From assembly GCA_051942245.1 (NCBI GenBank), contig JAVECL010000034.1, forward strand, positions 1 through 64,000: a stretch of DNA of 64,000 nt, in the 5' to 3' direction. Both the position numbers and the translations under genes were made by a program. Each line of letters begins with the position of its first letter. Position 1 is the first letter of the stretch. This document shows positions 63,832 to 64,000 of this stretch, piece by piece. The DNA is from Trypethelium eluteriae (Eukaryota). The notes below the pieces were generated by a model that saw only the letters and a list, made by a program, of their open reading frames with translations, did no database searches and had not been told where the DNA came from.

Positions 63832-64000
63832 ATGAAGTTCTCCGCAGTCATGGCAGGAGCGATTTGTGCGATGTCGGCAGTCTTCGCTGCTCCTGTGAAC
63901 CCTAAGCCTGACGAGGGCAATATCTTCGAGCCATACAGCATTGGCACTGGATCCATCCCTTCCTCAAATTCGGCTCCAACGTCACACGATTCGGAAAACG
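63832..64000 (+). CDS. Small secreted peptide, candidate RiPP precursor (partial, runs off the window)
   Basis: ATG 63832 is open to the window end: MKFSAVMAGAICAMSAVFAAPVNPKPDEGNIFEPYSIGTGSIPSSNSAPTSHDSEN. Typical signal peptide with AxA/AP cleavage; not in the ORF track. Confidence 0.7.
   Translation, partial: MKFSAVMAGAICAMSAVFAAPVNPKPDEGNIFEPYSIGTGSIPSSNSAPTSHDSEN

Follow-up and report, generated by a model that had tools for sequence, protein, structure and literature searches.

We found that the right edge of the window, i.e., the whole analyzed stretch of 64,000 nucleotides of Trypethelium eluteriae DNA at the start of contig C34, holds the beginning of what, judged from its sequence, is a real RiPP-type precursor gene in a conserved, little-described cluster. 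Most precursors of its family are without the aromatic residue that known dikaritin rings use. The ORF is very probably a genuine precursor paired with the adjoining DUF3328 oxidase. The cluster probably makes an undescribed modified peptide and not the known toxin ustiloxin, since other fungi with this gene set carry tyrosine-free repeats.

The Precursor and Its Repeats

The ORF at 63832..64000 (+) translates as the earlier note had given it and represents the first 56 of 105 codons of a single-exon gene without an intron, whose frame runs beyond the window and stays open to 64149 (stop codon at 64147-64149 of C34). The protein begins with a predicted signal peptide (63832..63888, +; amino acids 1-19), which had already been proposed and which agrees with inspection by eye and with a hydropathy rule: K2 is followed by a hydrophobic stretch (residues 3-18) with the end VFA-AP. 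Three units follow, namely IFEPYSIG (unit 1; 63922..63945, +; amino acids 31-38) and, beyond the window, TPESYSIG (unit 2; C34 64009-64032, +) and ILEPYTIG (unit 3; C34 64096-64119, +). The downstream recurrence of the motif, foreseen when only the first unit was visible, was thus found twice more: with their flanks, the units read EGNIFEPYSIG, EANTPESYSIG and DIDILEPYTIG, and they share the pattern E-x-Y-[ST]-I-G with the cores YSIG, YSIG and YTIG, i.e., Y-x-I-G in all three. One detail of the earlier note did not hold: the second repeat does not start at DSEN in parallel to DEGN (the real parallel is EGN/EAN), and the codon that comes next, for which its first base G had left Val possible, encodes Glu.

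When the mature part of the precursor was shuffled 20,000 times, 2 shuffles contained the gapped four-residue pattern E.Y.IG three times, and 2.3% contained the looser Y.IG three times. Units 1 and 3 are almost the same DNA, and in unit 2 the residues E, I and G are kept via synonymous codon changes and P is replaced by S; across the units, Tyr and Gly are present in three of three and Pro in two. The sole KR site (C34 64069-64074, +; amino acids 80-81) is located between units 2 and 3, so that the precursor has one KR for three units and not Kex2 sites between all of them.

The homologue search returned only the precursor itself among three candidates of near length and nothing among 198 longer ones, and no paralogue was found in its own genome. 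An identical precursor (record P0002) sits on a contig whose 249,894 bases exceed the 85,659 bases of C34, which means that another assembly contains it. A 157-base contig of run X1 is identical to 63829-63985; that this run is RNA is a weak guess, and over 10 kb it covers 1 of 30 bins, the uncovered bins carrying no information.

Gene Neighborhood of the Precursor

The precursor is part of a set of five genes in the order GNAT - DUF3328 - precursor - Pth11-like rhodopsin-domain - MFS. The DUF3328 neighbor that the earlier note had envisaged is indeed there, as the end of a PF11807 gene lies 663 bases before the precursor, in the same orientation. This DUF3328/UstYa copper-oxidase gene (62242..63168, +; exons 62242-62464, 62517-62746 and 62797-63168; 51.1 bits against a cut-off of 25) is intact and encodes 274 amino acids with an N-terminal membrane anchor, the motifs HQIHC and HLLHC, and cysteines at positions 187, 211, 229 and 249. 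The presence of an intact gene with two HxxHC motifs directly upstream supports the assignment of the ORF as a putative dikaritin-type precursor.

Upstream of the oxidase lies a gene for a GNAT-family acyltransferase (60688..61521, +; exons 60688-61093 and 61151 onward), with a score of 21.7 bits, below the cut-off of 27. It contains an in-frame stop at 61369-61371, and the 49 codons after this stop still align to the open GNATs of related loci. The premature stop is absent from all nine GNATs of related loci and from a paralogue piece on C147, and it is either a real nonsense change or an assembly error; A-to-I editing was rejected as its cause, as the stop is not aligned with a conserved Trp. 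The window GNAT has one match on C34, hence no second copy there. Downstream of the precursor, beyond the window, we found a fungal rhodopsin-domain (Pth11-like) gene (C34 64844-65982, +), with an open model of about 330 amino acids, and an MFS transporter gene (C34 66618-68220, +), with an open model of 501 amino acids. The models of the oxidase, the rhodopsin-domain protein and the transporter are all open and have normal splice sites.

Farther to the left, the cluster is followed by a NACHT-ankyrin gene and housekeeping genes, and farther to the right by genes for an amino-acid permease, a glycosyltransferase, a DsbA-like protein, a helicase and UGGT. The NACHT-ankyrin (NLR-like) gene (55658-59721, minus strand) borders the cluster, and locus L055 too has a NACHT gene, 3 kb downstream of its oxidase. 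An ORF at 43424-44391 of the window (minus strand) matches G-alpha weakly and partially (44.7 bits, below the cut-off of 48.8) and has a long unusual N-terminal part. Among the 49 ORF pieces scanned around the precursor, which were picked by length and position and do not represent every gene, no methyltransferase, P450, peptidase, SET methyltransferase or kexin gene was detected, nor was a reductase gene among the ORFs scanned within 20 kb. None of the 10 PF00264 (tyrosinase) matches of the genome is located on C34, five tyrosinase loci lying elsewhere, and C34 carries one of the 39 PF11807 matches.

Oxidase Relatives and Conservation of the Gene Set

The closest relatives of the window oxidase are about 40-52% identical to it, the nearest tree rows only about 50%. 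Those with names come from genera that we take to belong to Pleosporales, Helotiales and Eurotiales. Our metagenome scan for the oxidase yielded 63 loci, which fall into 32 groups at 90% DNA identity. In a tree of 199 columns, the window oxidase groups with GNAT/rhodopsin/MFS-linked relatives (28 versus 22 rows, support 99/97); this tree has a midpoint root and a bootstrap that had not fully settled, L079 was put into the group after a quick tree, and the position of the window within the 28 rows is not fixed by it. The quick tree had recovered the group, whereas a careful tree of 123 columns did not and left the window unplaced.

Among the 22 locus groups of L021-L058, 12 have a GNAT homologue, 9 a rhodopsin-domain gene and 3 an MFS gene; for the 10 groups of L059-L083, the corresponding counts are 0, 3 and 1. 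Many of the contigs counted end too early to show the neighbors; moreover, 11 of the 12 GNAT-bearing groups represent one sub-clade, so the counts are not independent. GNAT is wholly missing from several related loci that have 6 kb flanks (L023, L027 and L055) and would therefore be dispensable. Compared with the genome of the window, in which there are at least 160 rhodopsin-domain matches, the rhodopsin piece of L037, the GNAT piece of L025 and the MFS piece of L027 each have their best match on C34. The same adjacency is visible in merged public gene models, i.e., rhodopsin with UstYa in Aspergillus affinis and UstYa with MFS in Penicillium discolor. Based on these neighbor counts, best matches and merged models, the five genes appear to form a conserved, modular cluster, and we hold with good confidence that the window cluster belongs to a conserved family. 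The merged models (P0173 and P0054) are probably mis-joined neighbors and less probably true fusions. The oxidase profile had no match among PDB sequences, and the AlphaFold model of a relative (pLDDT 70.9) had no Foldseek match at E<=0.001.

Core Motif in the Precursors of Related Loci

As candidate precursors we regarded short signal-peptide ORFs near the oxidase, and we found 17 besides that of the window: 16 from metagenome groups and one, the paralogue, from C315. Groups L027, L031, L052 and L053 yielded no candidate, and the one of L024 is cut by the contig end. The pattern YxI[GP] occurs in 0 of these 17 precursors. In turn, [DNE]-P-x-x-[ILV] is present in 12 of them (e.g., NPAPI, DPTTV, NPVDV, DPVSI, DPPVL and DPAVL), and window units 1 and 3 fit it as well. 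In a reduced set of 13, which excludes the window, the finds of the motif filter (L035 and L039) and near-copies (L032 and L041), 8 precursors carry the motif, compared with a mean of 4.1 in shuffles (p=0.019), and the copies number 24 versus 4.9. The residue two positions before the motif, which lies outside the pattern, is I, L, V, A or F in 29 of 30 copies (background 0.37). It is Ile in window units 1 and 3; units 3 and 1 are also the two best matches of the window to the family profile, a modest fit when the profile is built without the window (p=0.047 for the two best-scoring stretches and p=0.13 for the best alone). The earlier note had proposed either YSIG or a longer (I)FEPYSI(G) as the core, and it is the longer form that fits the family motif better, because the precursors beside related oxidases are without YxI[GP]; YSIG loses ground on the same count.

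The exact motif is lacking in five of the 17 precursors: L055 and L058 carry a variant with one extra residue, and L049, L057 and C315 have none, the C315 paralogue carrying YEI twice. The number of units varies from one to seven, often with single-Arg sites, and in many precursors the place of KR is taken by RR or by a lone Arg with Ala-x-Pro behind it. At L032:2004-2340, an extra DPVEI unit lies behind the precursor stop; its counterpart in L048, NPVEI, is in frame, and early stops apparently lead to the loss of units.

We also observed precursor-like repeats at other DUF3328 loci. The paralogous cluster L084:3804-9273 (C315) has the organization rhodopsin - DUF3328 (44% identical) - precursor - methyltransferase, and its precursor consists of KR-separated AAPSLD...EIxED...SSS units in which the Pro..Ile motif is absent. 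At L090, about 4911-5305 (C701), a precursor interrupted by an intron, whose Pro-rich units (EPPVVPEGIDP...) lack Tyr and are separated by KR, is flanked by a more distant DUF3328 gene and by the second-closest rhodopsin gene. Tyr-free KR-separated repeats (TGPPKIE.DLAD) are likewise found at L093 near 5678 on the minus strand (C6), near a DUF3328 and a rhodopsin-domain gene. The locus L089:1414-6982 (C841) is organized as rhodopsin - small secreted ORF - DUF3328 - MFS, its MFS being the second-best match to the family transporter. Finally, a precursor-like stretch of VIYPDYRR-type units (L080:5040-5282) belongs to a locus with two DUF3328 genes outside the family of the window oxidase.

Comparison With Known Systems

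The ustiloxin/phomopsin systems (dikaritins; KEP type G-10, PMC7329392) share with the window cluster the signal peptide, the repeats, YxIx with an upstream acidic residue, an adjoining DUF3328 gene and a transporter. The likeness to ustiloxin claimed in the earlier note therefore stands as far as a secreted repeat precursor of RiPP type beside DUF3328, with all three units fitting YxIx, is concerned. It does not extend to the ustiloxin machinery: the window cluster has one DUF3328 match and no tyrosinase match on C34, and no methyltransferase, P450 or peptidase among the scanned ORFs; moreover, it has GNAT and Pth11-like neighbors, and the cores of its oxidase relatives lack YxI[GP]. UstA contains 16 units with the cores placed between ED and KR (PMC6514808), whereas the window precursor has three, with one KR in total and EP, ES and EP before Y, and no ED...KR flanks per unit. 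The tyrosinase (UstQ/PhomQ) is described as essential for ustiloxin and phomopsin (PMC6514808). We consider that the cluster would work like a dikaritin cluster but do not place it in the ustiloxin group, because a tyrosinase, a second oxidase and the ED/KR flanks are all lacking.

The asperipin-2a cluster (aprA, aprY, aprT and aprR; PMC6514808) is similar in being minimal, with one DUF3328 gene, a transporter and no tyrosinase described. It differs in its core FYYTGY with two Tyr ethers and in its reductase, whereas the window cluster has one Tyr per unit, GNAT and rhodopsin genes, and no reductase seen within 20 kb; in addition, most relatives of the window oxidase have no Tyr in their cores. 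The closest published architecture, compared by description only, appears to be the lichen Clan R2, in which a single ustY is associated with GNAT without any of the ustiloxin tailoring enzymes and which its authors call a different class (PMC12048977). Yet, in that account two GNAT copies flank ustY, the clan is described from Parmeliaceae only, a search for its precursor gave none, and rhodopsin-domain and MFS genes go unmentioned, whereas the window cluster has one GNAT, with a premature stop, and both latter genes downstream. The epichloecyclin cluster (gigA/B/C, kexB) also has one DUF3328 gene, no tyrosinase and a core with Pro/Ile and Tyr in published descriptions; unlike it, the window cluster shows no SET methyltransferase or kexin gene and no LXKR sites, and its spacing is different.

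With CctR, ApnU and AprY the window oxidase shares the membrane anchor and HxxHC(x)nHxxHC, a likeness that concerns motifs and Cys spacing alone: its four C-terminal Cys are at 187/211/229/249 and those of CctR at 190/213/229/240 (PMC12435403). According to PMC7329392, 65.6% of the repeats in DUF3328-linked precursors contain Tyr, His-His and Trp types being among the others, so that Tyr-free precursors are already known in bulk; the KEP table of that paper does not contain the accessions next to six named homologues of the oxidase. A weak search of titles and abstract beginnings, mostly in non-subscription literature, found no published GNAT-DUF3328-precursor-rhodopsin-MFS set and no [DNE]PxxI core. 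Further background was taken from PMC10540207, PMC9233826, PMC11308680, PMC6339444, PMC6941272 and 10.64898/2026.06.16.732702.

Possible Modification of the Peptide

DUF3328 proteins are described as dimeric di-copper oxidases that are anchored in the membrane, face the lumen and act on C(sp3)-H bonds, which they activate for hydroxylation, halogenation or cyclization (PMC12435403), the type of reaction not being deducible from the HxxHC motifs (PMC13519999). The reading we tentatively prefer, at slightly less than an even chance, is that the oxidase acts on the Ile positioned four residues after Asp/Asn/Glu and that Tyr is not needed. Ile is taken as the oxidized site and Glu as the ring partner because the window and its relatives share an acidic residue or Asn and then an aliphatic residue four positions on. 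The precursor would enter the ER, and the oxidase would recognize aliphatic-x-[Asp/Asn/Glu]-Pro-x-x-[Ile/Val/Leu] and oxidize the last residue, here Ile. The likeliest outcome would be a five-residue ring from Ile onto the Asp/Asn/Glu side chain (Glu here), with hydroxylation or desaturation of Ile as fall-back outcomes. The units would be freed by Kex2, for which there is one KR here and KR/RR or a single Arg in relatives, together with other peptidases, and the MFS protein would move them. In the relatives GNAT would acylate the freed N-terminus, but the product of the window cluster would be unacylated, because its GNAT has the premature stop. The Pth11-like neighbor is a candidate sensor or accessory protein. 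Several findings speak against the oxidation of Ile: Tyr and Gly are kept in three of the three window units and Pro in only two, which argues that Tyr matters in this precursor, the profile fit is modest, five of the 17 precursors lack the exact motif, and the identity to the nearest rows is about 50%. The motif [DNE]Pxx[ILV] could also be a recognition sequence and not the modified site.

A bolder version, which we consider improbable, is a self-contained peptide signal module across Pezizomycotina, in which the oxidase would close a non-aromatic ring, GNAT would acylate the peptide, the MFS protein would export it and the Pth11-like protein would be its receptor. If true, it would add a new DUF3328 cross-link (Asp/Asn/Glu side chain to an Ile/Val/Leu carbon) and a class of peptide ligands for Pth11-like GPCRs. 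In the window's own genome, 7 of the 24 DUF3328 loci have a rhodopsin-domain gene no more than 5 kb away (5-8% expected under even spacing, p 0.0002-0.003), an adjacency that overstates the case because accessory genes cluster anyway. Pth11-like genes are also reported within PKS and NRPS clusters, the products of which were proposed as ligands (PMC12842992). The seven DUF3328 loci with a nearby rhodopsin-domain gene are on C34, C315, C841, C350, C66, C701 and C6, and some of their oxidases fall outside the family of the window oxidase.

The strongest alternative to oxidation of Ile opposite Glu, though a rather unlikely one, is that the core is YSIG/YTIG and that the oxidase makes a Tyr-O-to-Ile ether, either directly, in the manner of AprY for asperipin-2a, or in the ustiloxin manner with the help of a tyrosinase from another locus. 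All three units carry Y-x-I-G, the E two positions before Y resembles the acidic ED flank of UstA, and PMC7329392 names YTIG, though not YSIG, among the predicted ustiloxin-type cores in its main text; moreover, a single DUF3328 gene with a transporter is the arrangement of the asperipin-2a cluster (PMC6514808), and the five tyrosinase loci in the rest of the genome could supply the second enzyme. It is countered by the absence of a tyrosinase from C34, given the essential role of UstQ/PhomQ (PMC6514808), by the one DUF3328 match there instead of two, and by the lack of YxI[GP] in all 17 precursors beside related oxidases.

We think it improbable that the conserved Pro, and not Ile, is the target, through chlorination, hydroxylation or desaturation. 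No residue of the family motif is more constant than Pro, but Pro lies within the searched pattern, and Ser replaces it in unit 2. Cyclochlorotine is described as chlorinated and hydroxylated by DUF3328 enzymes, and a close homologue (P0005) is labeled as phenylalanine aminomutase. This label is presumably that of the fused cctP entry, the DUF3328 half of which (CctP2) chlorinates Pro. However, a fusion of aminomutase and DUF3328 was not found among the longer proteins, where 8,000 scored candidates gave one match, a rhodopsin fusion. P0005 itself is a DUF3328 homologue of 280 amino acids filed under Quercus suber; it is likely of fungal origin, its label having been transferred.

Similarly doubtful is a decaying cluster that makes little or nothing in this genome. 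The GNAT stop, which the nine GNATs of related loci and the C147 piece lack, the degenerate unit 2 and the single KR for three units point in this direction; the open oxidase, rhodopsin and MFS models with normal splice sites, the synonymous changes that preserve E, I and G between units, and the dispensability of GNAT argue against it. Least probable is that the ORF gives unmodified linear peptides of pheromone or effector kind and the oxidase has another substrate: although the Atlas feature matches of the precursors of the window and of L029, all below the 0.9 bar, include alpha-factor precursors (0.76 and 0.82, respectively), Pleosporales alpha-pheromones have, as described, a PYGXPXG core with Kex2/Ste13 sites that the units do not fit, precursor-like ORFs adjoin the oxidase in 17 related loci, and pheromone precursors are almost never DUF3328-linked in the account of PMC7329392.

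Implications

The rings of characterized dikaritins are described as passing through an aromatic residue, i.e., Tyr, or Phe in victorin. A DUF3328 group with mostly aromatic-free cores would point to other chemistry for this family of copper enzymes and offers short, testable substrates. Surveys that, as published, need three Kex2-separated repeats would overlook many of these precursors, because they have as few as one unit and often single-Arg sites, and such criteria may explain the missing precursor of the GNAT-ustY Clan R2. The steady linkage with Pth11-like genes would provide a way to test a clustered product as a receptor ligand, a question raised in PMC12842992. In turn, the window copy, with Tyr in a mostly Tyr-free family, would allow testing whether one oxidase scaffold can switch its cross-link partner.
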